A stretch of DNA of 64,000 nucleotides from a bacterium (lineage in GTDB: Bacteria; Omnitrophota; Gorgyraeia; Aquiviventales; Aquiviventaceae). Below are positions 8,170-35,356 of this stretch, one piece after another. The translations under genes and the position numbers were made by a program. The stretch covers positions 13,145 to 77,144 of the forward strand of contig DASWKB010000038.1 in assembly GCA_036396895.1 (NCBI GenBank), written 5' to 3'. The first letter of the stretch is position 1. Each line of letters starts with the position of its first letter. Below the pieces are notes generated by a model. That model did no database searches, had not been told where the DNA came from, and was given only the letters and a program-made list of their open reading frames with translations.

Positions 8170-8188
8170 CCCCACTTCCGTCGCTGTT

Positions 8189-13007: not shown

Positions 13008-13026
13008 TCCTTGATCGTCTAGCGTA

Positions 13027-16302: not shown

Positions 16303-17355
16303 CTAGCAGATACGGGGCAGCTGCTCGCCGCTCAGCATATCAAGAATCCGGGAGGATCCGATGGCGCTTTTCAGCGAGACAAGGCCGGGGGTGTCGCCCG
16401 CCACCCGTCCGATTTCGACCGCCTGCTGCCCCAGCGGGTGCGCCCGCATCAGGGCCGCCGCCCGGGGAGCGTCCTGGGGCGCCACGAACGCGACGAACCG
16501 CCCTTCGTTGGCGACGTACAGCGGGTCGAGACCCAGCATCTCGCAGGCGCCGCGCACCTCCTCGCGAACCGGCACGGCCGCCTCATCGACCGCAAGCGGC
16601 ACCCGCGCGCTCTGGGCAAGCTCCACCAGCGCGCTCGCGAGACCGCCGCGGGTGAGATCCCGCAGGCAGTGCACCTCGATCCCGGCCTCCACCAGCGCCG
16701 CGACGAGGCCGGCGAGCGGAGCCGAATCGCTCTCGATCGCGCTCTCGAACTCGAGCCCCTCGCGGACCGCCATGATCGCGATGCCGTGCCGGCCGATGTC
16801 TCCGCTCAGCAGCACCACGTCCCCCGGCCGGATGCGGTCGGGACCGATGACCACGCCGGGCGGCACAAGACCGAGCCCCGCGGTATTGAGGTAGATCCCG
16901 TCGCCTTTGCCCCGGTCCACGACCTTGGTGTCGCCGGTCACGATGTCGACTCCGGCCGAGGCGGACGCCTCCCGCATGGAGCGCACGACTTCCCACAAGG
17001 ACGCCATCGGAAACCCCTCTTCCAGAATGAAGCCCACGGTGAGCGCGACGGGCTTCGCCCCGCACATCGCCAGGTCGTTGACCGTGCCGTGCACCGCGAG
17101 CGAGCCGATGTCACCGCCGGGAAATTTCCAGGGCCGCACGACATAGGAATCCGTCGTCAGCGCCACCCGCGTCCCGTTCACGCCGAGGACGGCGCCGTCG
17201 TGCAGCCGCTCCGGGCTGCCGCCGAAGGCGGGTACGAACACCCGCTCGATCAGCTGGCGCATCAGCTTGCCTCCACCCCCGTGCGCGAGCAGAATCTGCG
17301 GCGTCTCCGTGATCGGCAGCGGACACGCAAGCGACAGCGGGGGGCGCTCGCTCAT
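16303..17355 (-). CDS. hypE: Hydrogenase maturation protein HypE (carbamoyl dehydratase)
   Basis: From [15 protein letters not shown]…; has AIR-synthase-like domains and the HypE C-terminus …PRIC. The ORF in the track has a spurious Arg-rich N-terminal extension. Confidence 0.9.
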
Positions 17356-18458
17356 CGCGCCTCCACCTTCGCCGCGACCCCCCGGTAGCGGTAATAGGCG
17401 GCGCAGGCCCCCTCGGATGAGACCATCGTCGCGCCCATCGGGCGCTCGGGCGTGCAGCGGGTGCCGAACGCGGGGCACTCCGTCGGCTTCTTCACGCCCT
17501 GCAGCACGAGCCCGCTCTCGCACTCGGCGGGCTCCTCCGTATGGCGGTCCGCTACGCCGAAGCGGCGCTCGGCGTCGTGCGCGTCGTACGGCGGCCGCAA
17601 GCCCAGGCCGCTTGCGGGGATGCTCCCGACGCCGCGCCACTTGCGGTCGACGACCGTGAAGACCTCCCGGATCAGCGCCTGCGCCGGACGGTTGCCCGCG
17701 CGCCGGACCGCGCGCGCATACTGGTTCTCGACCTCGGCGCGGCCCTCCTCGAGCTGGCGGACGCACAGGTACACGCCCTGGAGGATGTCGAGCGGCTCGA
17801 AGCCCGTCACGACGATCGGCACGCGGTAGCGCGCGGCCAGCGGGCCGTATTCGGCGGTGCCCATGATCGTGCAGACGTGTCCCGCGGCCAGGAATCCCTG
17901 CACCCGGTTCATGGGCGAGCTCAGGATCGCTTCCATGGCGGGCGGGACGAGCACGTGCGAGACGAGCAGAAAGAAATTCTGGAGGGTCGCCCGGTGCGCC
18001 TGATACACGGCCATGGCGGTGGCGGGCGCGGTCGTTTCGAACCCGACGGCGAAGAAGACGACCTCGCGGTCGGGATGCGCGGCCGCGAGCGCGACGGCGT
18101 CCATCGGCGAATAGACGACCCGGACGTCGCCGCCGCGCGCCTTCACGGCGAAGAGGTCCTCGCGGCTGCCGGGCACGCGCAGCATGTCTCCGAAGGAGCA
18201 GAAGATGACGCCCGGCGCCGCGGCGATCGCGAGCGCTTTGTCGATGAGCTCAAGGGGCGTCACGCACACGGGACAGCCGGGCCCGTGGATCAGCGTGAGC
18301 TCGGGCGGCAGGAGCTCGTCGATGCCGAACTTCACGATGGCGTGCGTCTGCCCTCCGCAGATCTCCATGATCGTCCAGGGGCGCCTCGTGCGATTCGCGA
18401 TCAGCCGCGCGTAGCGGCGGGCGGCTTCGGCGTCGCGGTACTCATCGATGAATTTCAT
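17352..18458 (-). CDS. hypD: Hydrogenase maturation protein HypD
   Basis: 368 aa with MKFIDEYRD…, the GPGCPVCV motif and the CGG motif. ATGA overlap with hypE. Confidence 0.9.
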
Positions 18459-18709
18459 GGCGGCGGCGCCTCAAGTTCCGCGAGCTCGCCCATGCGCCGC
18501 AGGTAGTCGAAGACGACGGTCGCTTCCTGCTCGTCGACTTTGCTGATCGCGAACCCGACGTGCACGATCACGTAGTCCCCCACCCCGGCCTCGGGGACAT
18601 AGGAGAGGTTGACGGGCTTGAGGACGCCGCCGAAGCTCACCTTTCCGGTCCGCGCGCCGGGCTCCTCCCGCTCGAGGCGCACGATTTGTCCGGGCACGCC
18701 GAGGCACAT
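18455..18709 (-). CDS. hypC: Hydrogenase maturation protein HypC
   Basis: [11 protein letters not shown]-terminus (the MCL(A/G)(I/V)P signature), about 84 aa. Confidence 0.85.
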
Positions 18710-21414
18710 CACGTCCTCCGCTCGCTTCGGTCGGCGGCGAGAGCCTGGCCGAGCGACAGTCCGCCGTCATTCGGCGGAACGCGCTGATGCCAGTAGGGGC
18801 GAAATCCGGCATCGCGCAGGCGGCGCACCGCCCGCTCGGTCAGCCGGCGGTTCTGGAAGCACCCGCCGCTGAGCGCGACACGGCGCTCGCCGATCGCGGC
18901 GGCCGCCGCAAGGATATATTCTACCAAGGTCTCGTGCACGTTCGCCGCGATGATTCCCGCGTCCACGCCGCGCCGGCGGTCCTCGAGGAGCCCGCGCACC
19001 ATCGGACCCCAGTCGATCACGATGGGCGAGTCCGCCCCTCCCGGCCGGCCCAGCCGCACAGGGTACGGCCCGGAGCCGTCCGCGCGCCCGGCCACGTCTT
19101 CCAGCAGCATCGCCGCCTGCGCTTCGAACGCCGCGACCTGCCGCAGCCCGATGAGCGCGGCGACGGCGTCGAAGAGCCGCCCGGCGCTCGAGGTGATCGG
19201 CGCGTGGATCCCGCGCCTCAGCATGACCCGCAGCACCTCCCGCTCCTTCGGTGTGAACGCGGCCAGCGCCGGCACCTCGCGGCGCGAAAACGCCCCCTCG
19301 CCGAAGAGCTCGTACAGCACGCCGAGCGCCGAGCGCCGCGGCTCCTTGACGGCCTGATCCCCGCCCGGGAGGCGGAACGTGCGCAAGTGCGCCGCGCGCT
19401 CGAACCCCCGGGCGCCGACGCGAAGGAATTCCCCTCCCCAGACCGTGCCATCGAGCCCGTACCCCGTGCCGTCCCAGGCGACGCCGAGGACCGGCGGCTC
19501 CAGGTCGTTCTCCGCCATGCAGCTGAGCACGTGCGCGTAGTGATGCTGCACCGCCACGACCGGGAGGCCCGTCTGCCCGGCATACTGGGTCGAGCGGTAA
19601 TCCGGGTGGGCGTCGCAGGCGACCGCCTGAGGCCGCGCCTCGTGCAGGCGCGCGAGGTTCTCCGCGGCCTGCTGGAACGCGGCATACGCCTGCACGGTCT
19701 CGAGATCGCCCAGGTGCTGGCTGACGACCACGCCGGAGCCGACGGTGAGCGCGACGGTGTTCTTCAGGTGCCCGCCGACGGCGAGCACGGTCCGGACGGA
19801 GCGCCGCTTCAGCGGCACCGGCAGAGGGGCGTAGCCGCGCGCCCGGCGGATCAGAAGCTCGCGCTCGAGCACGACGCGCACGACGGAATCGTCCACGTGC
19901 CTGGCGATCGGCCGGTTGTGGACCAGAAAGAGGTCGGCAATGCCCTCCAGCCTGTCCAGCGCCTCGCTCTCGTCCGTGCAGATCGGCTCGTCCGAGAGGT
20001 TACCGCTGGTCGCCACGATGGGACCCGCGACCGCCTGAACGAGCAGGTGGTGCAGCGGCGTGTACGGGAGCATGACGCCCAGCGTCCGTTGCCCGGGGGC
20101 GAGGCTCTCCGCCAACGGGGACTCCTCAGGCCGGATCCGCTTCTCGAGCAGCACAATCGGGGCCTGGGGAGACGCGAGGAGGCGCTCCTCGATTTCCGAT
20201 ACGTCGCACTGCGCCCGCACCGCGCCGACCGAGCGCACCATCACCGCCAGCGGCTTCTCCTCGCGCCGCTTGCGCTCGCGCAGTTCCCGCACGGCGCCGT
20301 CATTGCGCGCGTCCGCGACCAGATGGAATCCGCCGAGCCCCTTGACCGCCACGATGCCGCCTGAGCGCACTGCCTCGGCCGCCGCCGCGAGCGCGGCGGC
20401 GTCCCTGGCCAGCACCGCGCCCGCCGGATCCCACAGCGCCAGACGGGGTCCGCAGGCCGGGCAGGCGTTCGGCTGGGCGTGGAACCGGCGGTCGGCCGGA
20501 TCGTCGTATTCGCGGCGGCAGTCCGGGCAGAGCGTGAAGCGGCTCATCGTCGTGGCCGGCCGGTCGTAGGGCAGTGCGAGGATAATGCTGAACCGCGGCC
20601 CGCAGTTCGTGCAGTTGGTGAACGGATACCGGAAGCGGCGGTCGCGCGGATCGTCGAGCTCCCGACGGCAGTCCGCGCACGTCGCCAAATCTGGCAGGAC
20701 GACGCCGGTCCGGGCGCCGCCCTGACCGCTTTGGCGGATGGCGAAACCGCGGAGCCCGGCCGCGTCCAGCCAGCGGACCTCCTCGCTGTACACCGCGGCC
20801 TGTGGCGGGAGATCATGGCGGAGCCCCTCCAGCAGCCGCGCGAGCGTCTCCGGAGCGCCTTCCGCCTCGACGATCACGCCTTGGGGGGAGTTCTGCACCC
20901 AGCCGTCGAGCCCGAGCCGGGTCGCCAGCCGGTGCACGAAGGGACGGAACCCGACGCCCTGTACCGCGCCGGTCAGGGCGACGTGGAGCCGCCGCCGCTC
21001 CTGCCGCGCGATCCGGATCCCGGATTGTTGCGCCATCGGACTCTCCATCCGCCGTGACGGCCCCTCGGCCGCCTCCGTCGAATCCGCCACCGTCACGTCG
21101 ATCACCTCGAGCGCGTGCGCACCCGGCACCTCGATCAGCGCGCCGCAGGCGCCGCACGGGAGCATCGACCCGGCGAGCGCGTCGTGCGTCACGGGCTCAT
21201 CGCGCCCGCACGCGCACCGGACGGACGTCACGCCCGGCTCGATGATGACCTCGGCGGACTCCAGGACGGACCCCGCCGAGGCGGCCGCGAGGGCGTGCCG
21301 CACCGCCTCGGGCGCGAGCGCGCCTCCCGCACGGACCCGCACCTGTCGTACTCCTGTCGGGAACCGCCGGGTGAGCTCGCGCATCAGGGCCAAGACGGAG
21401 CCGGATTCATGCAT
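18709..21414 (-). CDS. hypAF: HypA-HypF fusion: N-terminal HypA (Ni-insertion zinc-finger protein) fused in-frame to carbamoyltransferase HypF
   Basis: MHESGSVLALMRELT… plus CxxC…CxxC (CACGRD…CGACG) make a HypA of about 115 aa. After a linker comes the HypF acylphosphatase domain (LTGAVQGVGFRPFV), two CxxC zinc fingers, and the YrdC and Kae1-like domains, ending …GGLSLGQ. There is no stop codon between the HypA and HypF parts. Confidence 0.75.
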   Translation of the reverse strand: MHESGSVLALMRELTRRFPTGVRQVRVRAGGALAPEAVRHALAAASAGSVLESAEVIIEPGVTSVRCACGRDEPVTHDALAGSMLPCGACGALIEVPGAHALEVIDVTVADSTEAAEGPSRRMESPMAQQSGIRIARQERRRLHVALTGAVQGVGFRPFVHRLATRLGLDGWVQNSPQGVIVEAEGAPETLARLLEGLRHDLPPQAAVYSEEVRWLDAAGLRGFAIRQSGQGGARTGVVLPDLATCADCRRELDDPRDRRFRYPFTNCTNCGPRFSIILALPYDRPATTMSRFTLCPDCRREYDDPADRRFHAQPNACPACGPRLALWDPAGAVLARDAAALAAAAEAVRSGGIVAVKGLGGFHLVADARNDGAVRELRERKRREEKPLAVMVRSVGAVRAQCDVSEIEERLLASPQAPIVLLEKRIRPEESPLAESLAPGQRTLGVMLPYTPLHHLLVQAVAGPIVATSGNLSDEPICTDESEALDRLEGIADLFLVHNRPIARHVDDSVVRVVLERELLIRRARGYAPLPVPLKRRSVRTVLAVGGHLKNTVALTVGSGVVVSQHLGDLETVQAYAAFQQAAENLARLHEARPQAVACDAHPDYRSTQYAGQTGLPVVAVQHHYAHVLSCMAENDLEPPVLGVAWDGTGYGLDGTVWGGEFLRVGARGFERAAHLRTFRLPGGDQAVKEPRRSALGVLYELFGEGAFSRREVPALAAFTPKEREVLRVMLRRGIHAPITSSAGRLFDAVAALIGLRQVAAFEAQAAMLLEDVAGRADGSGPYPVRLGRPGGADSPIVIDWGPMVRGLLEDRRRGVDAGIIAANVHETLVEYILAAAAAIGERRVALSGGCFQNRRLTERAVRRLRDAGFRPYWHQRVPPNDGGLSLGQALAADRSERRT

Positions 21415-21973
21415 CGGGCACCGCCGGCTCAGGCGCGCGCGGAGGCGCGGACGGACACGCCAGGTCCCGCAGGATGCGCCCCGCGACCTTCGCAGACGCC
21501 CGTCGCACCGCGGGCGTGACCGGCGCTCCGGGATCAAAGCAGTCCCCCTCGATGCCGTACACCATCACCCGGGCCGGCAGACGGCGCATCGCCCGGGCCA
21601 GCTCGATCGCGTCGGCGACGCCCATCCCGTGCGTCGAGTGCTGGCGCAGCTCAGCCGGTACGGGACCCTCGCTCACGGCGAGCCGGTGGATCGTCCCCGG
21701 CCGAGCGCCGGAGGCGACGGCATCGATGAGCACGACGTGCTCATGGGCCGCCCAGGCATCCAACAACTCCGTCAGCGCGCCCCCGGCTTCGAGGATCTCG
21801 ACGCCCGGCAATGCCGCGGACCGAATGCGGCGCGCCGCCAGCACCCCGGCGGCGTCATCGCCGCGGAGCGTGTTCCCCATGCCCACCACGAGCACCCGCC
21901 CGGCCGGCAGAGGCGCCGCCGGACCGGCCGATGCCGCATCCGTCCCGGATGTCCGGCGCGCACGTCCCCGCAT
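21407..21973 (-). CDS. Hydrogenase maturation endopeptidase (HycI/FrhD/HoxW family)
   Basis: VLVVGMGNTLRGDDAAGV (GNxLxxDDG motif), about 160-188 aa, immediately downstream of the large subunit. Confidence 0.75.
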   Translation of the reverse strand: MRGRARRTSGTDAASAGPAAPLPAGRVLVVGMGNTLRGDDAAGVLAARRIRSAALPGVEILEAGGALTELLDAWAAHEHVVLIDAVASGARPGTIHRLAVSEGPVPAELRQHSTHGMGVADAIELARAMRRLPARVMVYGIEGDCFDPGAPVTPAVRRASAKVAGRILRDLACPSAPPRAPEPAVPDA

Positions 21974-21976: not shown

Positions 21977-23300
21977 TCACTCCCGGAACAGCCGCAGCTT
22001 CAAGAAGTGCGTGGAACACGAAATGCACGGGTCGTAGTTCCTCACGGCCTGCTCGCATTGCCACTCGAGTTCCTTCGCCGGGAGCGAGAGCCGTTCCGGC
22101 ACAAACGCCCGGAGATCCTGCTCGATCGTGGCCTGGTTCACCGCCGTCGGAGACACGATCTTGGCGTCCCGGATCGTCCCCGCGTCGTCGATCGTGTACC
22201 GGTGGTAGAGGATCCCCCGCGGCGCCTCGGTGACGGCGTAGCCCGTGCCCGCGCGGGGCCGCACTTCGACGGCGGGGGCGTCGGGCGGCTCGTACGCCTC
22301 GATGATCCGCAGCGCTTCCTCGAACGCGAACACCGTTTCGACCCCGCGCACCAGGATGCTCCGGAACGGGTTCCGGCACGAGTCGCTCAGGCCGGCCTGC
22401 CGCGCCGCGTCTTGCGCGACCGACGGAAGGCGCTCGAAGTTCAGGCTGTACCGGGCCAGCGGCCCGACGTGCGCCGTGCCGCGGCCCTGCACCACGCTGT
22501 GCAAGGCGGTCGAATGCGGCTGGTGTTGCTCCAGCAAGTGGGCATCGTAGTCCCGGACCTCGATGTCGAGGCCTTTGTTGGACACGAGCCGTCCTTCGTT
22601 CAGCGGGTACTCCTCGGCGTGCCGGAGCGCCACGAACTCATAGTCCTGCTCGAAGTCCGGGTAGGACAGCGTGGCCAGCCACGACATCGTCTTCACGGCG
22701 GCGTCGCGCCCCCAGGCCAGTTCGTCGCGCATGACCGCCAGTTCCGACTTGGTCGGCACCCGGTAGAATCCGCCGATCTTGACGTTGATCGGGTGGATCT
22801 CCCGTCCGCCCAGGAGCGTCATGAGCGTATTGCCGGCCTTCTTCATGCGGAGGCCGCGCTGGACGAGCTCAGGATGGTCTTTGGCCATCTGCACCGCGTC
22901 CTGATACCCGAGGAAATCCGGCGCGTGGAGCAAAAACATGTGCAGCACGTGGCTCTCGATCCATTCGCCGCAGTACAAGAGCCGCCGGAGCGCCCGCAGC
23001 GGCCCGTCCACGGTCACGCCGCAGATCTGCTCCATCGCATGCACGGCGCACATCTGATAGGCGACCGGGCAGATCCCGCAGATGCGCGCGGTGAGATCCG
23101 GCGCTTCGCGGAAATCCCGGCCGCGCAGCAACGCCTCGAAAAACCGCGGCGGCTCGACAATGCGCAGCTTCACGTCCTTGACGTCCCTCCCGCGGATGCG
23201 GATGTCGAGGCCGCCCTCGCCCTCCACCCGGGCGAGATAGTTCACCTTAATGTGACGCGTCGCGGTGCGGGGCATGGGCTTCACTCTCCCGTCGGAAGAC
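21977..23300 (-). CDS. hydA: [NiFe]-hydrogenase large (alpha) subunit, group 3b (sulfhydrogenase/NADP-coupled type)
   Basis: N-terminal [10 protein letters not shown] and C-terminal [10 protein letters not shown] Ni-binding CxxC pairs. About 440 aa. Confidence 0.85.
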
Positions 23301-24044
23301 ATCGGCATAGGCGTTGTACGTCCGGAAGCTGCGCACGAGGTCCGCCTCATGCGCGCCCAGCTGCTTCCACTGCTCGCTCAGCGCGCGGGTGTTGGCGCTT
23401 TCCATCGGGCCGAAACACCCGTAGCAGCCGCGGGAGAAAGCCGGGCAGATCGCCCCGCAGCCGTCCTGGGTGACGGGACCCAGACACGGCGTCCCGTGGG
23501 CCGTCATCACGCACGTCAGGCCGCGACGCTTGCAGGTGAGGCAGACGCTCGACGTCGGCAGGTTCGGCGCCCGTCCGTTCAGGAGCGCGCTGAAGACTTC
23601 CAGGAGCTGCGCCTTGTTGATCGGACAGCCCCGCAGTTCCAGATCCACCGTCACGTGGTCGATGATCGGCGTCGAGCGCTCCAGCGTCTCGATGTACTCC
23701 GGTTTGGCGTAGACGATGGACACGAACTCGTTGACCTTGCGGAAATTCCGCAGCGCCTGGATCCCGCCCGCGGTCGCGCACGCCCCGATGGTCACCAGCA
23801 TCCGGGACGCCCGCCGCACCTGTTGAATCCGCTCGGCATCATGGGAGGTCGTCACGGACCCTTCGACCAGCGAGACGTCATACGGCCCCTTCACGACGGC
23901 CCGTGACGCCTCAGGAAAATTCGCGATGTCCACCGCGCCCGCCACCGCGAGGAGCTCGTCCTCGCAGTCGAGGAGGCTCAGCTGACACCCGTCGCAGGAC
24001 GCGAATTTCCAGACTGCCAGTGTCGGCCGCTTCACCGCTCCCAT
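23247..24044 (-). CDS. hydD: [NiFe]-hydrogenase small (delta) subunit, group 3
   Basis: [12 protein letters not shown]…IGACATAGG, a short group-3 small subunit lacking a Tat signal. Confidence 0.8.
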
Positions 24045-24045: not shown

Positions 24046-24906
24046 TCATATCTCCCGCTTGGCCAGCCACGGTTCCACGCGATCGACCCGAAACACCGGG
24101 CCGTCCTTGCAGACAAAGAACGGCCCGAACTGACAGTGCCCGCAGAGCCCGATGGCGCACTTCATATTGCGCTCCAAGCTGACGTAGATCCGGTCGTTCG
24201 TCACGCCGCGCTTCTGGAGCTCCTGGACGGCAAATCGCATCATGATCTCGGGACCGCAGACCATGGCGAGCGCCTGCAGGGGATCGAACCCGGCCCGCCG
24301 GATCAGGGGCGTCACCACCCCGACGTTCCCGCGCCAGCCCCCTTCCCCCCGGTCGACGGTGACCTGGACGTCGAGGTCGAATCGCCCGCCCCAGAGCCGC
24401 AGCTCGTTGCGGAAGAGAATGTCGCTCGGCGTCCGGGTCCCGTACAGCAGCACCACGCGCCCGTACCGGGACCGGTGCGCCAGCACGTGATAGATGGCCG
24501 GCCGCAGCGGCGCCAGCCCGATCCCGCCCGCGACGATCACGACATCCCGGCCGGCGGCGAGGTCCAGCGGCCAGCCGGTGCCGAAGGGCCCGCGCACGCC
24601 GAGGAGCCCTCCGCGTCCAAGACGGCTCATGGCGTTCGTCACCGCGCCCACGGCGCGCGTGGTATGCCCGACGCGCACGGTGGATGCCGGATCGCCCGAG
24701 ATCGAAATCGGGACTTCTCCCACCCCGATCACGTCGAGCATGTTGAACTGTCCGGGCCTGAAGGGCCGGACGCGCGAGCCCGGCTGCGGCTGCAGCTCCA
24801 TCGTAAACGTGTCGGCCGTTTCCTTCCGCACCCGCTTAATGAGAAACAGGTCCGGCCGCATCGGATCGGCGCCCCGCCCGTTCGTCTTGGTCTTCGCGCG
24901 CATCAC
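24046..24906 (-). CDS. hydG: Hydrogenase gamma subunit (PyrK/AsrB-like FAD/NAD(P)-binding, 2Fe-2S)
   Basis: FNR-like fold and the C-terminal [10 protein letters not shown] 2Fe-2S motif. Confidence 0.8.
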
Positions 24907-25363
24907 GCTCCCCCGTAGAGGTCCTGCAATTGCAGGCGAGCCGACTCCAGCCGGTCCGCGATCACCTGCGAGAAGCGCCGCAGGAGTTCATACCCCAGGT
25001 CGTGATCCTGCTCGCATTTCTTCCGCAGACACTCGCCGTCCAGCACCACGGCGCGGACCGGCGTCAGGGCGCGGGCGTCAAAGCGCCACTGATGCGGCGG
25101 GATGAGCCACGACCAGCCGAGCACGTCCCCCGCGGAGACGGTCTGAATCGTCCGGGGCGACCCGCCCACCGGCGGCAGCTCGATCCCGACGCGGCCTTCG
25201 CGCAGCACGTAGAACGCATTCGCCGGCTCGCCCGTGCGGAATATGTACGCCGCGGGCTGCACGGCGACGTTCCGCGCGCATCCGGCCAACACCGTGACGT
25301 AGGGGGCCGGAACATCATGGAAAAACGGGTGGTCGGCCAACAGCGACGCCAGATCGCGCATCA
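24903..25363 (-). CDS. Standalone cyclic-nucleotide-binding (cNMP/CAP effector) domain protein lacking an HTH
   Basis: About 150 aa from [16 protein letters not shown]…; has the beta-roll signature ([18 protein letters not shown]…). It overlaps the hydB stop (ATGA) and the hydG start, so it is embedded in the hydrogenase operon. Confidence 0.6.
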
Positions 25364-26545
25364 GGAGCCTCCTGGGGTGGCCGGCGGATCGCACCGCTCG
25401 GACTCGCGGATTTCCCGGACTTCCTCGGTCACATCGATGCCAACGGGACACCAGCTGATGCAGCGCCCGCACCCCACGCATCCCAGGGTCCCGAACTGGT
25501 CGACCCACGTCGCCAGCTTATGCGTCAGCCATTGCCGGTATCGCGCGCGCGTCGAGCTCCGGATGCTGCCGCCGTGAATGTAGCTGAACGCCATCGTGAA
25601 GCATGAATCCCATTTCCGGACCCGCTCCGCCGTCGTCCCGGTCAGGTCGGTGACCTCCTCCACCGTCGAGCAGAAACAGGTCGGGCACACCATGGTGCAA
25701 TTCGCGCAGGCGAGGCACCGCGACGCGACCTGATCCCAGCGCGGGTGGTCCAGATGCCGGTAGAGCAGGTCCTTCAGGCCGTCCACCTCCAGCGTCCGGC
25801 CCATCCGGGCGGCCGTCTCCGCCACCGCCGACGTCGCGCGGGCCACCGTCTCCGGATCGGCCGGCCGGTGCGCGAGCTCGGCGAGGAGCTCCCCGCCGCG
25901 CGCCGTGCCGACCTCGATGAGGAATTCATGACGCTGCGCGTCGCACAGCTCGGTGAGCGCCAGGTCAAATCCCGTCGTGGCTGCCGGGCCAGACTGCACG
26001 GACGCGCAGAAGCAGGTGCCGCCCGACTGGGTGCAGTTGACCGCGATCAGGCACGCGGATTGACGGCGGGCCGCGTACTGCGGATCGGCCCACGTCCCCT
26101 CGAGCAGAATCCGGTCCTGCACCGCGATCGCCTGAAGCTCGCATGCCCGCACGCCGAGGAACGCCAGCTTCTCACGCGGCGCGCCGCCCCCCGTGAACGC
26201 CGGCGCCCGCCCGGAGCGATCGACCCGGCAGACGGTCGCCACGGGAGGGTACAGCCAGCGCTTCCATGACTGCGGGCTGAGCGTATAGCCGAAGAGCGTG
26301 TCGTGCTCCCGGCGGAAGAGCCGGTAGCGCCCCGGGGCCTGCTCGTCGCCCCACCCCGCCGGCAGCGCCTCGGGCCCATCGAGTTCATCGTAGACCACGG
26401 CGCCGTCCCGCACGGTCGGACCGATCACCCGGTACTCCCGCTTGCGCAGCGCGTCGAACAGGCTCCCGAGCGCGGCGCGTTCCATGAGCGCCCGCCCCCC
26501 CGTCCCGAGGGCCCGCCGATTCCCCTGTGATGCCGTGCCGCCCAT
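25361..26545 (-). CDS. hydB: Hydrogenase beta subunit (AsrA-like, multiple 4Fe-4S clusters)
   Basis: CLACANCTMVCPTCFC plus further Cys clusters; about 394 aa. Confidence 0.8.
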   Translation of the reverse strand: MGGTASQGNRRALGTGGRALMERAALGSLFDALRKREYRVIGPTVRDGAVVYDELDGPEALPAGWGDEQAPGRYRLFRREHDTLFGYTLSPQSWKRWLYPPVATVCRVDRSGRAPAFTGGGAPREKLAFLGVRACELQAIAVQDRILLEGTWADPQYAARRQSACLIAVNCTQSGGTCFCASVQSGPAATTGFDLALTELCDAQRHEFLIEVGTARGGELLAELAHRPADPETVARATSAVAETAARMGRTLEVDGLKDLLYRHLDHPRWDQVASRCLACANCTMVCPTCFCSTVEEVTDLTGTTAERVRKWDSCFTMAFSYIHGGSIRSSTRARYRQWLTHKLATWVDQFGTLGCVGCGRCISWCPVGIDVTEEVREIRESERCDPPATPGGS

Positions 26546-26558: not shown

Positions 26559-27587
26559 TCACGATCCGTCCGGCGCGTCGCCGGGCCGGGGACGCAGCGC
26601 GTAGGAACGCAGCACCTTCATGTAATTGGCCCGCTCGAACGCTTCGGGCTCGGCCACCGCCACCGTGCTCATGCTGCCCTGCATCTGCTGGACGGACTCG
26701 TATTCGTGCTCTTCCATCCACCGCACGAGGCCGGCCGTGAGCGTCTGCACGTGCTCGGGGCCGTGGCGCAGCAGCGCCGAGGTCATCATGGCCACCCGCG
26801 CGCCGGCCATCATGGCCTTCAGGACGTCCTCCGCCGTGTGGACGCCCCCCGTGACCGCCAGGTCCGCGCGCAGGCAGCCGTAGAGCATCGCCACCCACTG
26901 CAGGCGAAGCCGCAGCTCATCCGACGTGCTGAGCCGCAAGTTCGGGACGACCTCCAGCCGCTCCAGATCCAGATCCGGCTGATAGAACCGGTTGAACACG
27001 ACGAGCGCATCCGCCCCCGCGGACTCCAGGCGGCGGGCGATGTGGGCCAGCGCGCTGAAGAACGGGCTGAGCTTGACGGCCACCGGGATGTCGATGCTCG
27101 CCGCCACGTCCCTGACCAGCTGGACATACATCGCCTCGACGTCCGCGCCGCTGGTGTCCGGATTGGTCGGGATGAAATAGACGTTGAGCTCCAGCGCGTC
27201 TGCGCCGGCCTCCTGGATCCGCTTGGCGTAGCTGATCCAGCCGCCGGTGGAGACGCCGTTCAAACTGCCGATGATCGGGATCCCCACCGCCGCTTTCGCC
27301 CGCCGGATGTGCTCGAGGTACTCCTCGGGTCCGAGGTTGTAGCGCGTCATGTCCGGAAAGTAGGTGAGCGCCTCCGCGAAGCTCTCCGTCCCGTAGGAGA
27401 GGAACCGGTCCAGGTCCTGGCTCTCCAGAACGATCTGCTCCTCGAACAGCGACGGCAGCACGACGGCCGCGATGCCCGCGTCCTCGAGGCGCTGGATGCT
27501 CCGGAGGTCCTCCCCCAAGGGCCCGGCCGAGGCGACGAGCGGGCTGCGCAGCGTCAATCCCAGGTAGCGCGTCGTGAGGTCAGGCAT
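26559..27587 (-). CDS. Dihydroorotate dehydrogenase-like (PyrD class 1-like FMN TIM-barrel) protein
   Basis: …[11 protein letters not shown]…, [11 protein letters not shown] and [19 protein letters not shown] match the DHOD family. Sits between PFOR and hydB. Confidence 0.65.
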
Positions 27588-30500
27588 GAGGGGCCTCCGG
27601 CGGCGCGTCCGTCACGGCGCTGGACGCCAGGTGCTGGTAGCGGCGCCATCGCACCCTGACGTCCTCCTGCGCGAGCTCCAGCAGGCGCTTGGCCTCCTCC
27701 GGATTGCTGTGCGCCAGCATGGTGTACCGGGTCTCGTTGTAGATGTAGTTCTCCAGGGGGATGCTGGGCGGTCCGGAGTCGATCAGCAGCGGGTGCTTGC
27801 CGTCCCCCGGGCGCGCCGGGTGGTACCGGAACAGCGGCCAGTGCCCGGATTGAACCGCGGCTTTCTGCTGGTCCATCCCGTGCACGAGGTCGTAGCCGTG
27901 CGCGATGCAGTGGCTGTAGGCGATGATCAGCGACGGCCCATCGTAGGCTTCCGCTTCGAGAAAGGCCCTCAGGGTCTGCATGTCGCTTGCGCCCATGGCC
28001 ACCTGCGCGACGTACACGTGCCCGTAGCTCAGCGCCATGAGCGCCAGGTCCTTCTTCGGCATCTGCTTGCCGCTCGCGGCGAACTTCGCGACGCCAGCCC
28101 GCGGCGTGGCCTTGGACATCTGGCCACCGGTGTTCGAGTACACTTCCGTGTCCAGCACGAGCACGTTGACGTTGTGCCCGGAGGCCAGGACGTGGTCGAG
28201 ACCGCCGTAACCGATGTCGTACGCCCAGCCGTCCCCGCCCACGATCCAGACGGTCTTCTTGACCAGGACGTCCGCCAGTCGCTCCAAATCGGCCCCCTCC
28301 TGCTCCGCCAGCCCGCGGAGCCGCTCCTTCAGGCGCGCCACGCGCTGCCGCTGCGCCCGCAGGCCGGTCTCGGAGCTCTGGTCGGCGTTGAGGATCGAGT
28401 CCACGAGCTCCTCGCCGACGATGTCGCCGAGCTTGACCAGCAGCCGCTTGGCATAGGCCCCCTGCGCGTCGAGTGCCAAGCGCATGCCCAAGCCGAATTC
28501 CGCGTTGTCCTCGAAGAGGGAGTTGGCCCACGCCGGCCCGCGGCCGTCCCCGTTCGCGGTCCAGGGCGTGGTCGGAAGGTTCCCGCCGTAGATGGAGGAG
28601 CAGCCCGTCGCGTTGGCGATCATCGCCCGGTCGCCGAAGAGCTGGCTGAGCAGCTTGAGATACGGCGTCTCGCCGCATCCCGCACAGGCGCCGGAGAATT
28701 CGAACAGCGGCGGCAGGAGCTGCACGTCCTTCACCTGCGCGAGCGCGAGCGCCTCCCGGTCCGCCTCGGGCAGCGACAGGAAGAACTCCCAGTTGTCCCG
28801 CTCGGCCGTCCGGAGCGGCTCCTGCGGGTGCATGTTGATGGCCTTGTGCCGGACTTCGCGCTTGCTCTTGACCGGACACACCTCCACGCACAGGGCGCAT
28901 CCGGTGCAGTCTTCCGGCGCGACCTGCAGCGTATAGCGGCGGCCGCCGAACTCCCGCCACCGGGCGGGCGCGGACTTGAACGTCTCCGGCGCGCCCTGGA
29001 GCCGGTCCGCCGGATAGACCTTCCCCCGGATCACCGCATGCGGGCAGACCAGCACGCACTTGCCGCACTGCACGCAGAGCGTCTCGTCCCACACCGGGAT
29101 CTGCAGCGCGATATTGCGCTTTTCCCAGCGGGCCGTGCCCGTCGGATAGGTGCCGTCGTCCGGCAGCGCGCTCACGGGCAGCTGGTCCCCCTGCCCGACG
29201 ATCATCCGCCCCAGGACGGACTTGACGAACTCCGGCGCCTGCGCGGGGACGGGCGGCAGGAGCTCGAGCGCGCCGTCCGCCTCGGCGGGCACGGCGACCT
29301 CGTGCAGGTGCTCGAGCGCGTGATCGACCGCCGCGAAATTCTTCTGGACCACGGCTTCCCCCCGCTTCCCGTACGTCTTCTGGATGGAGGCTTTGATCGC
29401 CGTGATCGCCTCCTCCCGTGGCAGGACGCCGCTGATGGCGAAAAAGCAGGTCTGCATGACCGTGTTGATCCGCCGGCCCATCCCCGCTTCCTGCGCCACC
29501 CGGTACCCGTCGATGACGAAGACGCGCAGGCGCTTCTCGATGATCTGGCGCTGCACGGGGCGCGGCAGATGCGCCCAGACCTCCCCCGGCCCGTACGGGC
29601 TGTTGAGCAGGAACGTCGCCTCGGAGCGGGCGACGGAGAGGACGTCGAAGCGCTCCAGGAACGAGAACTGGTGGCACGCGACCACGCTCGCCTGCGTGAT
29701 CAGATAGGCCGAGCGGATCGGCCGCGAGCCGAAGCGCAGGTGGGAGACCGTCATGGATCCCGACTTCTTCGAGTCATAGACAAAGTACCCTTGCGCGTAG
29801 AACGGCGTCCCCTCGCCGATGATCTTGATGGAGTTCTTGTTCGCCCCCACCGTCCCGTCGGATCCGAGGCCGTAGAAGATCGCCCGGTGCGTATCCGCGT
29901 CCTCGGTCGAGACCTCCGGGTCGTAGGCCAGGCTCGTCATGGTGACGTCGTCCACGATGCCGACCGTGAAATGGTTCTTCGGAGAGGCGCTCGAGAGCTG
30001 ATCGAACACGCCCGTCAGCATCGCCGGGGTGAACTCCTTGGACGAAAGCCCGTACCGGCCGCCGATGATCTTCGGATGCGTCCGGAAGGGCGCCCGCCCG
30101 GCCGACACGGCTTCCTGGACGGCGGCGACGACGTCCAGGTACAGCGGCTCGCCCGCGCTGCCGGGCTCCTTGGTGCGGTCGAGCACCCCGATGGCGGTCA
30201 CCGTGGGCGGCAGCGCGGCGATGAAGTGCTCCACCGAGAAGGGGCGGTAGAGCCGGACGTTGATGAGCCCGACGCGCGCCCCACGGGCGGTCAGGTACTC
30301 AACGGTCTCCTGGGCCGTTTCGGCGCTGGAGCCCATCAGGACCACCACGTGCTCGGCATCCGGCGCGCCGAGGTAGTCGAAGAGGTGGTAGCGGCGACCC
30401 GTCAGGCGGCCGAGGGCGTCCATCGCGCCCTGCACGATCGCCGGACACGCGAGGTAATACGGATTGGAGGCTTCGCGGGCCTGGAAGTGCACGTCCGGGT

Positions 30501-31161
30501 TGTGCGCCGTGCCCCGGATGACCGGCCGGTCCGGAGTGAGCGCGCGGGCTCGGAACGCGCGAACCAAGTCGTCGTCGATCAGGGCCCGGAGATCCTCGGG
30601 GGCGAGCCGTTCGACCTTCATGACCTCGTGCGAGGTCCTGAATCCGTCGAAGAAATGCACCGCGGGCACGCGGGACTTGAGCGCGGCCGCGTGGCTCACC
30701 AAGGCGAGGTCCATCGCCGCCTGCACGGAGCTGGAGGCGAGCATGGCGAACCCGGTCGCGCGCGCGGCCATCACGTCGCTGTGGTCGCCGAAGATCGACA
30801 GCGCCTGGGTCGCGATGGACCGGGACGCGACGTGAAACACCGTCGGGAGCAGCTCCCCGGCGATCTTGTACATGTTCGGGATCATGAGGAGCAGGCCCTG
30901 CGAGGCGGTGAACGTCGTGGTCAGTGAGCCCGCCTGGAGGGCGCCGTGCACCGCCCCCGCGGCTCCGCCTTCGCTCTGCATCTCTTCAACCGAGGGAGGA
31001 ACCCCCCACAGGTTCGGCCTGCCCTGGGTCGCCCACTGATCCGCCCATTCCCCCATGGTCGAAGAGGGGGTGATGGGATAGATCGCGATCACCTCGCTGA
31101 GTTGATAGGCGATCTCGGCAACCGCCTGGTTGGCATCGAGCGTCACGCTCGGGCGTGGCAT
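27580..31161 (-). CDS. nifJ: Pyruvate:ferredoxin (flavodoxin) oxidoreductase, single-polypeptide NifJ/PFOR type
   Basis: 1193 aa with ferredoxin-like [12 protein letters not shown] and the TPP motif [16 protein letters not shown]. Confidence 0.9.
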
Positions 31162-32125: not shown

Positions 32126-32467
32126 TCATTCGTGTGACGTTCGACGTTCGTCCCTTTGGTCCACCAACCGGATCGTCTCCACGATCAACGGCAGATACCG
32201 GTCGAGACAGCAGTCGGCGCGGCTGCGGACCTCGCACGCATCGTCGGCCCGGCGGTGCTCGCACCGTGAACAGATCCGCGCGCGGACGGCGGCCTCGTAC
32301 GCCGGTCCGGAGGCCCCGCCGACCTCGCGCACCAGTTCCACCAGCGCGGGAATCCACGCGGCCATCCGGCACGTGTCCGGATCCTCGCAGGAGAGCTGCC
32401 GGTCGAGGCAGACCCCGTGGACGTGCGCCCGAAGCGCGTCCCGATAGTGCTGCCAGGGATCCGTCAT
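32126..32467 (-). CDS. Small Cys-rich hypothetical protein (8 Cys), translationally coupled to pckA
   Basis: MTDPWQHYRDALRAHVHGVCLDRQLSCEDPDTC…ICSRCEHRRADDACE…CCLDRY. The ATGA overlap places its start on the pckA stop. Confidence 0.4.
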   Translation of the reverse strand: MTDPWQHYRDALRAHVHGVCLDRQLSCEDPDTCRMAAWIPALVELVREVGGASGPAYEAAVRARICSRCEHRRADDACEVRSRADCCLDRYLPLIVETIRLVDQRDERRTSHE

Positions 32468-34146
32468 GGGCCTCCTCCCGGCGATGAAGACGCGGCGCGC
32501 GCGCCGACCGCGCCGTCTTCCGGCGCGGCCTGCCGGACGTCCGGCGGCACCCGCCCGTCGAACTGCGCGAAATTCTTCCGGAATCGCTGCGCCAGCTCGC
32601 GCGCCTTCGCGTCGTACGCGGACGGGTCCTGCCACGTGCGGCGCGGGTCGAGGACGGTCTCCGGCACGTCCGGGCATCGCGCGACCGCGTCCATGCCGAA
32701 CACCGGGTCACGCCGCGTCGGAGCCTCATCGAGCGCGCCGCCGAGCGCCGCGTCGATGATCGCCCTGGTCAGCTCGATCTTGATCCGCTTGCCGGCGCCG
32801 TAGGCCCCCCCGCTCCAGCCGGTGTTCACCAGCCAGCAGCGGGTGCGCTGCTCGGCGATCTTGTCCCCGAGCAGCTTCGCGTAGACGATAGGGTCCAGCG
32901 CCATGAACGGCGCGCCGAAACAGGTGCTGAAGGTGGCCTGCGGCTCGGTCACGCCCAGTTCCGTCCCCGCCACCTTCGCGGTGTAGCCGGAGAGAAAATG
33001 GAACATCGCCTGCGCGGGCGTGAGACGGGCGATCGGGGGCAGCACCCCGAACGCGTCGCAGGTGAGCATGATCACGTCGCGCGGATGGCCGCCGCATCCC
33101 GTCCGGCTGGCGTTGGGGATGTAGCAGAGCGGGTAGGCCCCGCGGGTGTTCTCGGTCAGCGAATCATCATCGAGGTCCAGCCGCCGGCTCTCCGGATCGA
33201 GCGCGACGTTCTCCAGCACGGTCCCGAACCGGCGCGTCACGGAGAAGATCTCGGGTTCCGATGCCGCCGAGAGGCGGATCATCTTCGCGTAGCAGCCGCC
33301 TTCGATGTTGAACACGCCGTGATCGCTCCAGCCGTGCTCGTCGTCGCCGATCAGGGTGCGCCGCCGGTCGGCCGAGAGCGTGGTCTTGCCCGTGCCGGAG
33401 AGGCCGAAGAAGACCGCCACCTCCCCGTCGGGGGCGATGTTCGCCGAGCAGTGCATGGAGAGCACGCCTGCGAGCGGCAGGAGGTAGTTCATCAGCGTGA
33501 ACACCGATTTCTTGATCTCGCCCGCGTACCCGGTGCCTCCGATCAGGATCAGCTTCTGTCCGAAGTTCACGACAATGAACGTGGGCGAGTTCGTCCCGTC
33601 GATCTCCGGGTCCGCGCCGAAGGAGGGGGCATGGAGCACCGTGTAGTCCGGCGTGAAGGCGGGATCGAAGCCCGTCCGGTCCTCCACGATGAACATGGTC
33701 CGGGCGAAGAGGCTGTGCCAGGCGCTTTCCGTCATCACCCGGATCGAACGCCGGTAAGCGGGATCCGCCCCGGCCGCGCAGTCCTGGATGAAGAGGTCTT
33801 TCCCCCGCAGCGAGGACAGCATGCGCCGGTGGAGCCGGGCGAACCGGGCCGAGGACATGGCGCGGTTGACCGGTCCCCACCACACGTGGGACTCGCTGGA
33901 CGGCTCGCGCACGACGTACTTGTCGTTCGGCGAGCGCCCGGTGTGCTGGCCGGTCCGGACCACCAGCGCTCCGCCACGGGCGACCGACCCTTCGCGCCGG
34001 CGGATCGCTTCCTCGTACAACGCCGAGGTCGAGAAGTTCCACGACACCTGCCCGGCCCGGGTCAGGCCGTGGCGGGCGAGCTCGCGGGCGGGCGAAGACT
34101 CCGGGGAGGATTCAGGCGAGCGGGCACGGGTTCGGCGCTGCGGCAT
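32464..34146 (-). CDS. pckA: Phosphoenolpyruvate carboxykinase (ATP)
   Basis: RSPNDKYVVRE, Walker A FFGLSGTGKTTLS, and overall PckA collinearity. The ORF in the track carries an N-terminal extension. Confidence 0.9.
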   Translation of the reverse strand: MPQRRTRARSPESSPESSPARELARHGLTRAGQVSWNFSTSALYEEAIRRREGSVARGGALVVRTGQHTGRSPNDKYVVREPSSESHVWWGPVNRAMSSARFARLHRRMLSSLRGKDLFIQDCAAGADPAYRRSIRVMTESAWHSLFARTMFIVEDRTGFDPAFTPDYTVLHAPSFGADPEIDGTNSPTFIVVNFGQKLILIGGTGYAGEIKKSVFTLMNYLLPLAGVLSMHCSANIAPDGEVAVFFGLSGTGKTTLSADRRRTLIGDDEHGWSDHGVFNIEGGCYAKMIRLSAASEPEIFSVTRRFGTVLENVALDPESRRLDLDDDSLTENTRGAYPLCYIPNASRTGCGGHPRDVIMLTCDAFGVLPPIARLTPAQAMFHFLSGYTAKVAGTELGVTEPQATFSTCFGAPFMALDPIVYAKLLGDKIAEQRTRCWLVNTGWSGGAYGAGKRIKIELTRAIIDAALGGALDEAPTRRDPVFGMDAVARCPDVPETVLDPRRTWQDPSAYDAKARELAQRFRKNFAQFDGRVPPDVRQAAPEDGAVGARAASSSPGGGP

Positions 34147-34202
34147 GATGGGGCTTCCGACTCCTTGCGTTGTGGTGGCTGCGCCCGTCGCCGCGTCAGA
34201 CG

Positions 34203-34673
34203 TCAACGCAGGAGCGCCCGCAGCACATCCATCGAGGTGACAATGCCGGCCAGGGTGCCCTCCCGTCCGACGACGACCCGGTGCACCTGCCGGCGCAGCA
34301 TCACCCGCCCGATGGCGCGCACGCTCGTCTGCTCCCGGACCAGGGGCGAGGCCGGCGCCATGACGTCGCGCACGCGGCGCTCGTCGGCCTCGGGGCCGAG
34401 CGACGGCGGAGGCGCCACGGCCGTGGATTCCTGCGTGAAATAGGCCGCCTCATCCGCGGCGCCGGTCCGGCCAAGCACCAGATCGCGCTGGGACACCGCC
34501 CCGACCAGCCGGCCCTCGGCGTCCACCACCGGCGCGCCGCTGACGCCGTGGTCGAAGAAGACCTGAGCCGCCTCCCGGAGCGTCATGTCCGGGCTCAGCG
34601 CCACGACGTGCCGGCGCATGACATCCCCGGCCCGCAGCTGCACGCCGTCCCGCTTCACCTGGATCCCAGCCAT
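34203..34673 (-). CDS. CBS-domain pair protein
   Basis: Two CBS repeats (…VMRRHVVALSPDMTLREAAQVFFDHGVSGAPVVD…). Confidence 0.65.
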   Translation of the reverse strand: MAGIQVKRDGVQLRAGDVMRRHVVALSPDMTLREAAQVFFDHGVSGAPVVDAEGRLVGAVSQRDLVLGRTGAADEAAYFTQESTAVAPPPSLGPEADERRVRDVMAPASPLVREQTSVRAIGRVMLRRQVHRVVVGREGTLAGIVTSMDVLRALLR

Positions 34674-34702: not shown

Positions 34703-35356
34703 TTACACGCGCACGCGGAACTCGGCGCCCGCGGTTCGCTCGCCGGCGATGTCGCCCTCGAGTTCCCGGATCAGCGTCCGGCAGTCAATCCCGTGCCGCC
34801 AGGCCACCTCGTCGAGGCACACCAGTCCCTCATCCTGAATGTTGATGAACATCCGCCGGAATACCCCTGCGGCTTCCGGATAGGCACGGAGCACCCGGTT
34901 CACGGTCATTCGCTCATCGACGCCGGCCTCCACCGAAGGCTCACCGAACTCCTCCTCGGAGGGGAGCCGCCGTTCAAGTTCCGGAAACAGCATGGCTTCC
35001 TCCTCGTCCATATGCCGGCGCAGCCGCTCGATGAGCGCGAGGAGCCGCGGGCGGATCGCCGCACGTGCTTCTCCCGGTCCCTGGACGAACGCCCGGTTGA
35101 TGGCGCTCAGCAGGCGCGGCTCGCGGCGGTGCGTCACGCCCAGGTGCGCGATCTCATCCGGTTCCAGCGAGGCGCGGCACCGGCTGATGAGCGACTCCTC
35201 CCGCCTGATATGGTCCTTCAACTGGCGCGCGAGCGTGTACACGAGCTCCCTCGCCACGTACCATGCCTGCGGATGCAAGGCAAGCGCGCTCTCGAGGATC
35301 TGAAGTTTCGCGCGCAGCAGCGCGTGCTCGCGCCGCAGGCGCTCCACCGGTTGCAT
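34703..35356 (-). CDS. Hemerythrin HHE cation-binding domain + C-terminal DUF1858 (ScdA_N-like) protein; has the RIC/YtfE domains in reversed order
   Basis: H…HxxxE motifs (RREHALL, KDHIRREE, HMDEEE) and a C-terminal …VLRAYPEAAGVFRRMFI…CLDEVAWRHGID… segment. Confidence 0.6.
   Translation of the reverse strand: MQPVERLRREHALLRAKLQILESALALHPQAWYVARELVYTLARQLKDHIRREESLISRCRASLEPDEIAHLGVTHRREPRLLSAINRAFVQGPGEARAAIRPRLLALIERLRRHMDEEEAMLFPELERRLPSEEEFGEPSVEAGVDERMTVNRVLRAYPEAAGVFRRMFINIQDEGLVCLDEVAWRHGIDCRTLIRELEGDIAGERTAGAEFRVRV

Follow-up and report, generated by a model that had tools for sequence, protein, structure and literature searches.

Gene X and its place in the hydrogenase operon

The subject of this analysis is a small gene embedded in a [NiFe]-hydrogenase operon, on a 64,000-nucleotide stretch of DNA (the window) from a bacterium of the Omnitrophota (GenBank assembly GCA_036396895.1, contig DASWKB010000038.1, positions 13,145 to 77,144 of the forward strand). 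The gene, referred to here as gene X and its product as protein X, is an open reading frame (ORF) of 152 amino acids with a cyclic nucleoside monophosphate (cNMP) fold, sited between a hydB-like and a hydG-like gene. It lies on the minus strand at 24903..25361, with an ATG at 25361-25359 and a TGA at 24905-24903, and its assignment draws on Pfam, a family profile, AlphaFold2 (AF2) and Foldseek. The original prediction had given the gene as 24903-25363; its lower end is retained here, whereas its upper end takes in the stop codon of the upstream gene.

Four structural genes, all on the minus strand, surround and follow X. The hydB-like gene (25361..26545) encodes a beta subunit of 394 amino acids, a 4Fe-4S dicluster protein that matches Pfam Fer4_22 (9.5e-34), matches NCBIfam sulfhyd_ShyB/HydB below the equivalog cut-off, and in the Protein Data Bank (PDB) matches the beta subunit of sulfhydrogenase 1 (9nez_B, E 1e-37). 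On the other side of X, the hydG-like gene (24046..24903) encodes a gamma subunit of 285 amino acids that combines binding of flavin adenine dinucleotide (FAD) and nicotinamide adenine dinucleotide or its phosphate (NAD(P)) with a 2Fe-2S region (Pfam NAD_binding_1 and DHODB_Fe-S_bind; NCBIfam PRK08345 and ShyC/HydG). The [NiFe] small, or delta, subunit is encoded by a hydD-like gene at 23247..24044 with a probable ATG at 24044 (Pfam Oxidored_q6; NCBIfam ShyD/HydD), and the [NiFe] large, or alpha, subunit by a hydA-like gene whose mechanical ORF spans 21977..23350 and whose true start is probably near 23275 (Pfam NiFeSe_Hases; NCBIfam ShyA/HydA). The translated C-terminus of the latter consists of DPCISCSTH followed by a cleavable tail. 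For all four genes the best NCBIfam matches are subunits of the archaeal sulfhydrogenases Hyd/Shy, in every case below the equivalog cut-offs. With its four structural subunits, the operon is assigned by Pfam, NCBIfam and PDB homology, to homologs and not equivalogs, to the group-3b type of NAD(P)-linked [NiFe]-hydrogenases. Group 3b enzymes have been described as widely distributed bidirectional [NiFe]-hydrogenases (PMC12319191).

Both junctions of X read TGATG on the coding strand. The hydB stop codon (25363-25361) shares one base with the ATG of X, and the X stop codon shares one base with the hydG-like ATG at 24903; if the hydG-like gene began instead at an alternative GTG at 24906, it would overlap X by 4 nt (GTGA). 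A Shine-Dalgarno sequence with a perfect AGGAGG, read from the sequence at 25368..25373 on the minus strand, is located 6 nt upstream of the X ATG, inside the 3′ end of hydB. Gene X and both flanking subunit genes are translationally coupled through these overlapping stop and start codons, so the coupling that had been predicted stands, although the overlap with hydB is of 1 nt and not of the ATGA form. At the three codon positions the GC content of X (0.73/0.47/0.86) is that expected of a coding gene in a window of 69% GC. Because X is found as a separate gene of 151-160 amino acids in 76 related loci, we conclude that it is a real gene and not a mis-called ORF or a frameshifted piece of hydB or hydG.

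Distribution, synteny and co-inheritance

Protein X scores 236 bits against the profile of a 3b-associated family of ~153 amino acids. It has 1539 database relatives, nearly all of 151-160 amino acids, which are 50-60% identical and come from many phyla. A profile search of 1.84 billion representatives placed the family in 821 clusters (50% identity) at E<=1e-30, and in a genome scan that took one genome per species at least 600 species genomes matched it. The protein from the window is at most 61% identical to any database sequence apart from the record of its own metagenome-assembled genome (MAG), making it a fairly divergent member of the family.

Gene order was compared by tblastn of six window proteins against 80 loci kept from the species-genome scan. 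The order hydB-X-hydG-hydD occurs in 77 of these, with hydA and hycI next wherever the contig continues, and the loci represent Acidobacteriota, Bacteroidota, Ignavibacteria, Zixibacteria and Planctomycetota as well as Chloroflexia, Nitrospinota, Armatimonadota, Binatia and KSB1. The three exceptions are a frameshifted assembly (L004) and two orphan copies (L079 and L082). The order hydB-X-hydG is also annotated on plasmids of Burkholderia savannae and Rhodococcus qingshengii, it was found by tblastn on two Streptomyces replicons, and X adjoins hydB in 12 of 15 plasmid-borne 3b clusters, a small plasmid sample. The original prediction had regarded X as an unusual insertion, absent from canonical operons. 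We find instead that hydB-X-hydG-hydD-hydA is the common bacterial arrangement of five genes, and that most of the bacterial versions sampled encode X as a fifth protein.

Close spacing is a feature of these loci as well. From hydB to X the median gap is +4 nt, with overlapping genes in 37 of 76 loci, and from X to hydG it is -14 nt, with overlap in 64 of 76. Conservation and co-inheritance were assessed in the 58 loci in which all five genes are complete. Mean pairwise identity there is 63% for X, as compared with 56% for HydB, 59% for HydG, 66% for HydA and 72% for HydD, and the distance matrix of X is correlated with the matrix of each of the four subunits (Mantel r 0.45-0.63, p=0.001), the corresponding values among the true subunits being 0.43-0.82. 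In its degree of conservation X equals the core subunits, with which it is co-inherited. Absence from the operons of relatives and a lack of co-evolution with the subunits, either of which would have spoken against the prediction, are both refuted by these data.

The family itself has been seen before. Its members are already annotated in RefSeq, one is listed in the Rhodococcus equi 3b cluster (PMC13332983), and a protein of the family encoded in a 3b cluster has been labeled 'HoxI' (PMC12319191). The literature that we found consists of these passing mentions and includes no functional study, and NCBIfam holds no curated model for the family, the best match being the cNMP insert of encapsulin 2B, far below the cut-off. 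The family is therefore one that is known already but functionally uncharacterized.

HydB fusions, tandem repeats and operons that lack X

Natural gene fusions offer a more direct view of where X might act. In 11 clusters, HydB is joined through a linker of ~18 residues to an X domain, giving proteins of 540-546 amino acids that are 57-76% identical to the fusion protein P0149. A complete operon on a 153-kb contig begins with the fusion gene, which is followed by a second, free copy of X and then by hydG, hydD, hydA, hycI, hypF, hypC and hypD. In the operons of this clade, as seen at 2924-5110 of locus L088 and at 7001-9184 of loci L091/L092, a free X copy is kept before hydG, and the linker motif VCKTC(V/T)PS is invariant. 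We accepted only the 540-546-aa clade as genuine fusions. HydB-X and HydD-HydA fusion ORFs at L004 were rejected on account of a garbled, frameshifted translation typical of an error-prone long-read MAG, as were two fusions of 539 and 720 amino acids (P0287 and P0288) from 'contig_' assemblies with fragmented neighboring genes. The natural fusion to HydB suggests that the X domain works at the C-terminal end of HydB.

Close relatives of X also exist as tandem repeats of two, three or five domains, in proteins of 300-840 amino acids (P0121-P0129 and P0139). One of the two-domain proteins, P0122, adjoins OEP, CusB/CzcB and ACR_tran metal-efflux genes on a JGI contig.

Some actinobacterial operons do without X. 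In Streptomyces sp. NBC_01340, hydB is followed directly by hydG, and the annotation of the Mycobacterium smegmatis 3b enzyme Hyh likewise has the gamma gene, MSMEG_3930, next after the beta gene, MSMEG_3931 (PMC2799521). Production of H2 by Hyh under hypoxia has been reported, and the enzyme has been linked to fermentative H2 production (bioRxiv 10.1101/2023.09.11.557286). Since no X gene separates the beta and gamma genes in these operons, X is accessory, dispensable in some lineages and not needed for catalysis. Orphan copies occur in Streptomyces as well. On plasmid pF1D35B of Streptomyces clavuligerus, a family member (36% identical) lies between genes for a GAF-domain protein and a response regulator (L084, 3985-9270), near a globin-domain protein and an Rrf2 regulator, a neighborhood of the nitric oxide/hypoxia type with no hydrogenase genes within the 12.4-kb stretch. 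On other Streptomyces replicons such a copy is separated by 12-21 kb from a 3b operon without an X gene of its own.

Dispensability raises the question of whether X might be an assembly or maturation chaperone, one that attends the beta/gamma module, for example until Fe-S clusters or FAD are loaded, and is missing from the mature enzyme. Operon position, translational coupling and co-inheritance would fit such a protein equally well. However, a covalent fusion to HydB that has been kept over a diverged clade argues for permanent association, and the dedicated maturation genes, hycI and hypA-F, form a separate block downstream. In addition, we know of no precedent for a chaperone with the cyclic-nucleotide-binding fold. 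We consider this explanation unlikely.

The fold of protein X

The only Pfam domain in protein X is cNMP_binding (PF00027), at residues 34-119 (E 2.3e-14, 53.6 bits against a cut-off of 27.5); the Pfam scan gave no helix-turn-helix (HTH) match, HTH_Crp_2 included, and the chain ends after the C-helix at residue 152. An AF2 model built with 81 homologs has a mean predicted local distance difference test (pLDDT) score of 90.9 and a predicted template-modeling (pTM) score of 0.83. It consists of two short N-terminal helices, an eight-stranded beta-roll with a short helix at the position of the phosphate-binding cassette, helix alphaB (109-118) and a 30-residue helix alphaC (120-150) like the dimerization helix of CRP, with no further domain. 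The top Foldseek matches are DNR, Gmet_1532 (3mdp), Mycobacterium tuberculosis CRP and GlxR, with a probability of 1.00 to DNR, CRP, GlxR and PKG domains. Profile score and order of strands and helices in the model both place X among the PF00027, or CRP/FNR effector, domains. As modeled, protein X is the sensor-plus-dimerization-helix half of a CRP/FNR regulator, in agreement with the stand-alone CAP-family effector domain of about 150 amino acids without an HTH that had been predicted. The CRP-type C-helix, together with the two X copies in each fusion operon and the existence of tandem relatives, points to a paired or dimeric working unit.

A C-helix without a DNA-binding domain would also suit an HTH-less decoy, a protein that forms heterodimers with full-length CRP/FNR regulators through this helix and so tunes transcription as an anti-regulator. 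Two full-length CRP/FNR regulators are indeed encoded ~10 kb away on the same strand, but they resemble X only generically (23 bits against the family profile). A position between subunit genes that is held across phyla, whatever regulators lie nearby, is hard to reconcile with a decoy, and so are the fusions to HydB; we regard this as the kind of role that X almost certainly does not have.

The cyclic-nucleotide cassette

If X were a genuine receptor for cyclic AMP (cAMP) or cyclic GMP (cGMP), it could switch the hydrogenase according to cyclic-nucleotide level. Its Pfam match to cNMP_binding lies above threshold, the fold is closest to cAMP-bound structures of CRP and GlxR, and the glycines that support the fold are kept: among 130 representatives, G44 is present in 108, G56 in 130, G78 in 115 and G82 in 128. 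The cassette itself tells a different story. When 26 and 81 members are aligned, conservation is highest in the stretch G-W-S-W-L-x-P-P-x-x-W-x-F-D-A-R-A, and the signature G-W-S-W-[LF]-x-P-P-x2-W-x-F-D-A is present at residues 82-96 of the window protein. The residues of the GWSW-x-PP-x2-W-x-F core are kept in 95-129 of the 130 representatives (W83 in 118, S84 in 114, W85 in 123, P89 in 129, W92 in 95 and F94 in 99), and position 93 varies among H, R, Q, A and T.

We compared this region with Escherichia coli CRP in a MAFFT alignment. In this alignment, G82 of X corresponds to Gly71 of CRP, and the position of the ribose-binding Glu72 is taken by W83, a tryptophan in 118 of the 130 representatives. 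The phosphate-binding Arg82 falls on the variable position or on Trp92, depending on the placement of a one-residue gap, and Ser83 corresponds to Phe94. A first reading, in which the cassette carried a 4-residue insertion with Arg82 equivalent to Trp92, was replaced by the gapless MAFFT register; the canonical contacts are lost in both registers. The cassette of functional cyclic-nucleotide receptors (G-E-x-x-x...R-[ST]-A) is thus not found in X, where the GWSW-x-PP-x2-W-x-F motif is kept instead.

Many sensors with the CRP/FNR fold, including FNR, DNR and CooA, do not bind cNMP. Because the Glu, Arg and Ser/Thr contact residues are replaced, sensing of cAMP or cGMP by X is unlikely, and its pocket is remodeled as in relatives of the FNR, DNR and CooA type. 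For the receptor explanation as a whole our expectation is very low. The original prediction had proposed an allosteric or sensor subunit, or a protein responsive to cyclic nucleotides, and had pointed to the cassette as the place where retained binding should be visible. An accessory or sensor role is the part of that proposal that is best supported, by synteny, co-inheritance, the HydB fusion and the HoxI precedent discussed below; the cyclic-nucleotide part is not supported, given the lost contacts.

Conserved cysteine and histidine residues

Conserved residues also lie outside the cassette. R113, R129, R137, R142, Q144 and D147 are invariant and on the surface, and a further group consists of cysteines and histidines. 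In aligned close homologs that share the synteny of the window, H11, C28, C111 and C116 are invariant and H120 is nearly so. Over the 130 representatives, C28 is found in 100, H11 in 95, C116 in 90 and C111 in 75. In the fusion clade C111 is mostly lost, and a CKTC motif is present in the linker, just N-terminal of the X domain, in 11 of 11 sequences; a CxxC was found in none of 107 unfused HydB tails. With CKTC gained and C111 lost, the number of potential ligands would stay roughly constant while their positions shift. By analogy with CRP, the Cys/His residues should sit where the N-terminal helices meet alphaB and alphaC, the allosteric hinge of the fold; C28 would be close to the start of alphaB because beta1 pairs with beta8 in the CRP roll, a topological argument.

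The pattern suggests a metal, a cluster or a thiol switch in part of the family. A specific version of an accessory role can be built upon it, in which X is a redox, metal or Fe-S sensing module that reports oxygen or redox state to the enzyme. X would then be a built-in redox/metal sensor of bacterial group 3b hydrogenases, gating the passage of electrons between NAD(P)H and the [NiFe] center via its dimeric C-helix in answer to a change in oxygen or cellular redox state. In such a sensor H11, C28, C111 and C116 would bind a metal or Fe-S center, or make up a thiol switch, in the hinge region where the N-terminal helices meet alphaB-alphaC, and in HydB-fused forms the linker CKTC together with C116 would replace this set. 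The invariance of the four residues in close syntenic homologs and the compensating CKTC of the fusion clade speak for this mechanism, as does a gene neighborhood of the hypoxia/fermentation type. In FNR, which has the same fold, N-terminal cysteines and Cys122 hold a 4Fe-4S cluster. Against it, the Cys positions of X do not match the FNR ligands in the MAFFT alignment, and the aligned Rhodococcus ortholog, which is encoded inside a 3b operon, has none of H11, C28, C111, C116 and H120. All three cysteines together are possible in only about half of the 130 representatives, and the idea of an Fe-S ligand set essential throughout the family was rejected on these grounds. We rate the redox-sensor mechanism as a tentative proposal with a minor share of the probability. 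Were it true, the archaeal four-subunit enzymes would lack this mechanism, and it would differ from that of HoxI.

Comparison with known systems

HoxI of Cupriavidus necator H16 (H16_RS31960 on pHG1, 167 amino acids), which belongs to the group 3d soluble NAD+-reducing hydrogenase, is the closest characterized analog of X, although not an ortholog. Like X, it is a stand-alone protein with the cNMP fold and no HTH, it is encoded in the operon of a cytoplasmic bidirectional [NiFe]-hydrogenase, and the canonical Arg that binds phosphate is missing from it. The HoxHYFUI2 complex contains two copies of HoxI as an accessory subunit on the diaphorase side, easily lost at high ionic strength (PMC3189943), and activation dependent on NADPH has been attributed to HoxI (Burgdorf 2005, as cited in PMC12319191). 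The differences are equally clear. HoxI keeps the Glu of the phosphate-binding cassette where the X family has Trp, and the two proteins are 19% identical by BLASTP. On the X-family profile HoxI scores 33 bits, close to the 26.5 of E. coli CRP, whereas true members from Burkholderia, Rhodococcus and Streptomyces score 107-230. The hoxI gene follows the hoxW protease gene and X lies between the beta and gamma genes, and the partners are HoxFU in one case and HydB/HydG in the other. Given the low identity and profile score and the different position and partners, the 'HoxI' label in PMC12319191 is best read as a statement of analogy, not orthology.

Proteins of the same kind as X are found in Burkholderia savannae (WP_059583937.1) and Rhodococcus equi (WP_013415449.1), which share its length, its signature motif and its site, flanked by the genes of the 4Fe-4S and FAD/NAD(P) subunits, and do not differ from it in kind. 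With the window protein the Burkholderia copy shares 45% identity, and it scores 230 bits on the profile. Pyrococcus furiosus sulfhydrogenase I (PDB 9nez/9nf0) has catalytic and electron-transfer subunits homologous to all four of the window. The archaeal prototype operon is a four-gene hydBGDA that is not known to include a cNMP-fold gene; the bacterial operons add X as a fifth. Among solved structures, the archaeal Pyrococcus enzyme is the only 3b enzyme that we found, with no bacterial one, and we found no complex in the PDB that contains an X-family protein. The closest solved structure of the domain by itself is Gmet_1532 of Geobacter metallireducens (PDB 3mdp, a structural-genomics 'CNMP-BD protein'; template-modeling score 0.81, root-mean-square deviation 1.6 Å). 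It matches the X profile at E 1e-16 and has a 'LIKPYHY..SARA' version of the motif region, but it is 26% identical to X, carries GVSSL instead of GWSW and has no published function. With sensors of the FNR, DNR and CooA type, X shares a fold in which the cNMP pocket has been re-purposed, DNR being the top Foldseek match; the conserved Cys residues of X are reminiscent of FNR, albeit at other positions, and unlike all of these sensors X lacks an HTH.

Proposed role of protein X

We propose that X is a non-catalytic accessory protein, probably a dimeric partner of the beta/gamma electron-transfer module in bacterial hydrogenases of the group-3b type, and we hold this to be the likely explanation of the data. 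Conserved synteny, co-inheritance, the natural fusion to HydB and the precedent of HoxI make an accessory or sensor role the best supported one. According to this proposal, X would be made in a fixed ratio with HydB and HydG through the overlapping stop and start codons and would dock, most likely as a C-helix dimer, on the beta/gamma, or diaphorase, module, beside the C-terminus of HydB. There it may modulate or stabilize the module in response to a signal other than a canonical cyclic nucleotide. Candidate signals are a pyridine nucleotide, which has been claimed for HoxI, and the redox or metal state of the X Cys/His residues. We infer physical binding in the unfused enzymes, dimerization, the identity of the signal and an effect on activity.

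Several observations weigh against an accessory subunit. That X belongs to the 3b enzyme is deduced from genes, and an assembly factor or a regulator encoded in cis could show the same synteny and co-inheritance. The solved Pyrococcus 3b enzyme (9nez) comes from a prototype operon that is not known to carry an X gene. An AF2 model of the fusion protein P0149 as a single chain (pLDDT 83, pTM 0.67) has a linker below 50 and does not establish a docked arrangement. Orphan X copies account for 2 of the 80 loci (L079 and L082), that at L079 lying beside unrelated genes, and relatives of X occur in non-hydrogenase contexts in Streptomyces and beside metal-efflux genes, which implies that the X fold is not exclusively hydrogenase-bound.

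If X is a subunit, models of the bacterial enzyme built on the archaeal four-subunit prototype are incomplete, and X becomes the obvious protein by which H2 production or uptake might be controlled after translation, be it through cofactor preference, redox state or oxygen. The immediate yield of this work is modest: a corrected 'HoxI' label, a signature motif for annotation, a HydB fusion that points to the place of binding and a short list of candidate ligands.

Surrounding genes

The genes downstream of hydA, all on the minus strand, serve hydrogenase maturation. A HycI-type maturation endopeptidase (21407..21973; Pfam HycI) is followed by a single reading frame of 901 amino acids for hypA and hypF (18709..21414; Pfam HypA plus Acylphosphatase, zf-HYPF, YrdC and HypF_C). 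This HypA-HypF fusion is uninterrupted, beginning with an MHE N-terminus and the Zn-site cysteines of HypA and continuing through acylphosphatase, two zf-HYPF, YrdC and Kae1-like domains; in the Burkholderia 3b operon, by contrast, hypA and hypF are separate overlapping genes. Next come hypC (18455..18712; Pfam HupF_HypC), hypD (17352..18458; Pfam HypD, 3.5e-154) and a hypE-like gene with AIRS and AIRS_C domains in Pfam (16303..17388, start approximate).

Upstream of hydB, on the same strand, lie a dihydroorotate-dehydrogenase-like (DHODH-like) gene at 26559-27587 (NCBIfam PRK07565, 480 bits; also matched in Pfam) and a gene for a pyruvate:ferredoxin oxidoreductase (PFOR) of 1193 amino acids at 27580-31161 (Pfam). 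The PFOR gene overlaps the DHODH-like gene by 8 nt and the latter ends 13 nt before hydB, leaving no room for a promoter, and the two are probably co-transcribed with the hydrogenase genes. Together with the five hydrogenase genes and the hyp genes they have the appearance of one long transcription unit. PFOR occupies the place in the window that is taken in other organisms by ppsA (phosphoenolpyruvate synthase), which lies upstream of the 3b operon in Burkholderia (L001, 2392-4848) and Rhodococcus (L083, 832-3141); in M. smegmatis, judging by locus number, the phosphoenolpyruvate synthase gene MSMEG_3934 lies near those for Hyh.

Genes for acetyl-CoA synthetase, phosphoenolpyruvate carboxykinase (PEPCK), a CBS pair, hemerythrin and the two CRP/FNR regulators are located near the operon. 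Along with PFOR, the DHODH-like gene and the ppsA genes of Burkholderia and Rhodococcus, they mark the neighborhood as a fermentation or hypoxia setting. The two regulators, both with an HTH and on the minus strand, correspond to 35576-36271 and to the C-terminal ~230 amino acids of the ORF at 36399-38147. Adjoining them on that strand are a hemerythrin-domain protein (34703-35425), a CBS-pair protein (34203-34673) and PEPCK (32464-34206), and the two CRP/FNR proteins are possible oxygen/redox regulators of the island. Scans of the window for Rfam families and tRNAs found nothing.

Two further groups of minus-strand genes lie at a greater distance. A block at 37049-49431 encodes ResB and ResC-like proteins of cytochrome c biogenesis, multiheme cytochromes fused to a cytochrome b561-type domain, a NapC/NirT-like cytochrome, a cytochrome b and, by a weak match, an MtrB/PioB-like outer-membrane porin; it resembles an extracellular electron-transfer module. 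At 11619-14120, between the genes for acetyl-CoA synthetase and a 948-aa TPR protein, are a gene resembling cytochrome bd subunit I (a weak, partial Pfam match), an ORF of 94 amino acids without a Pfam match and a gene for a VIT-family iron transporter.

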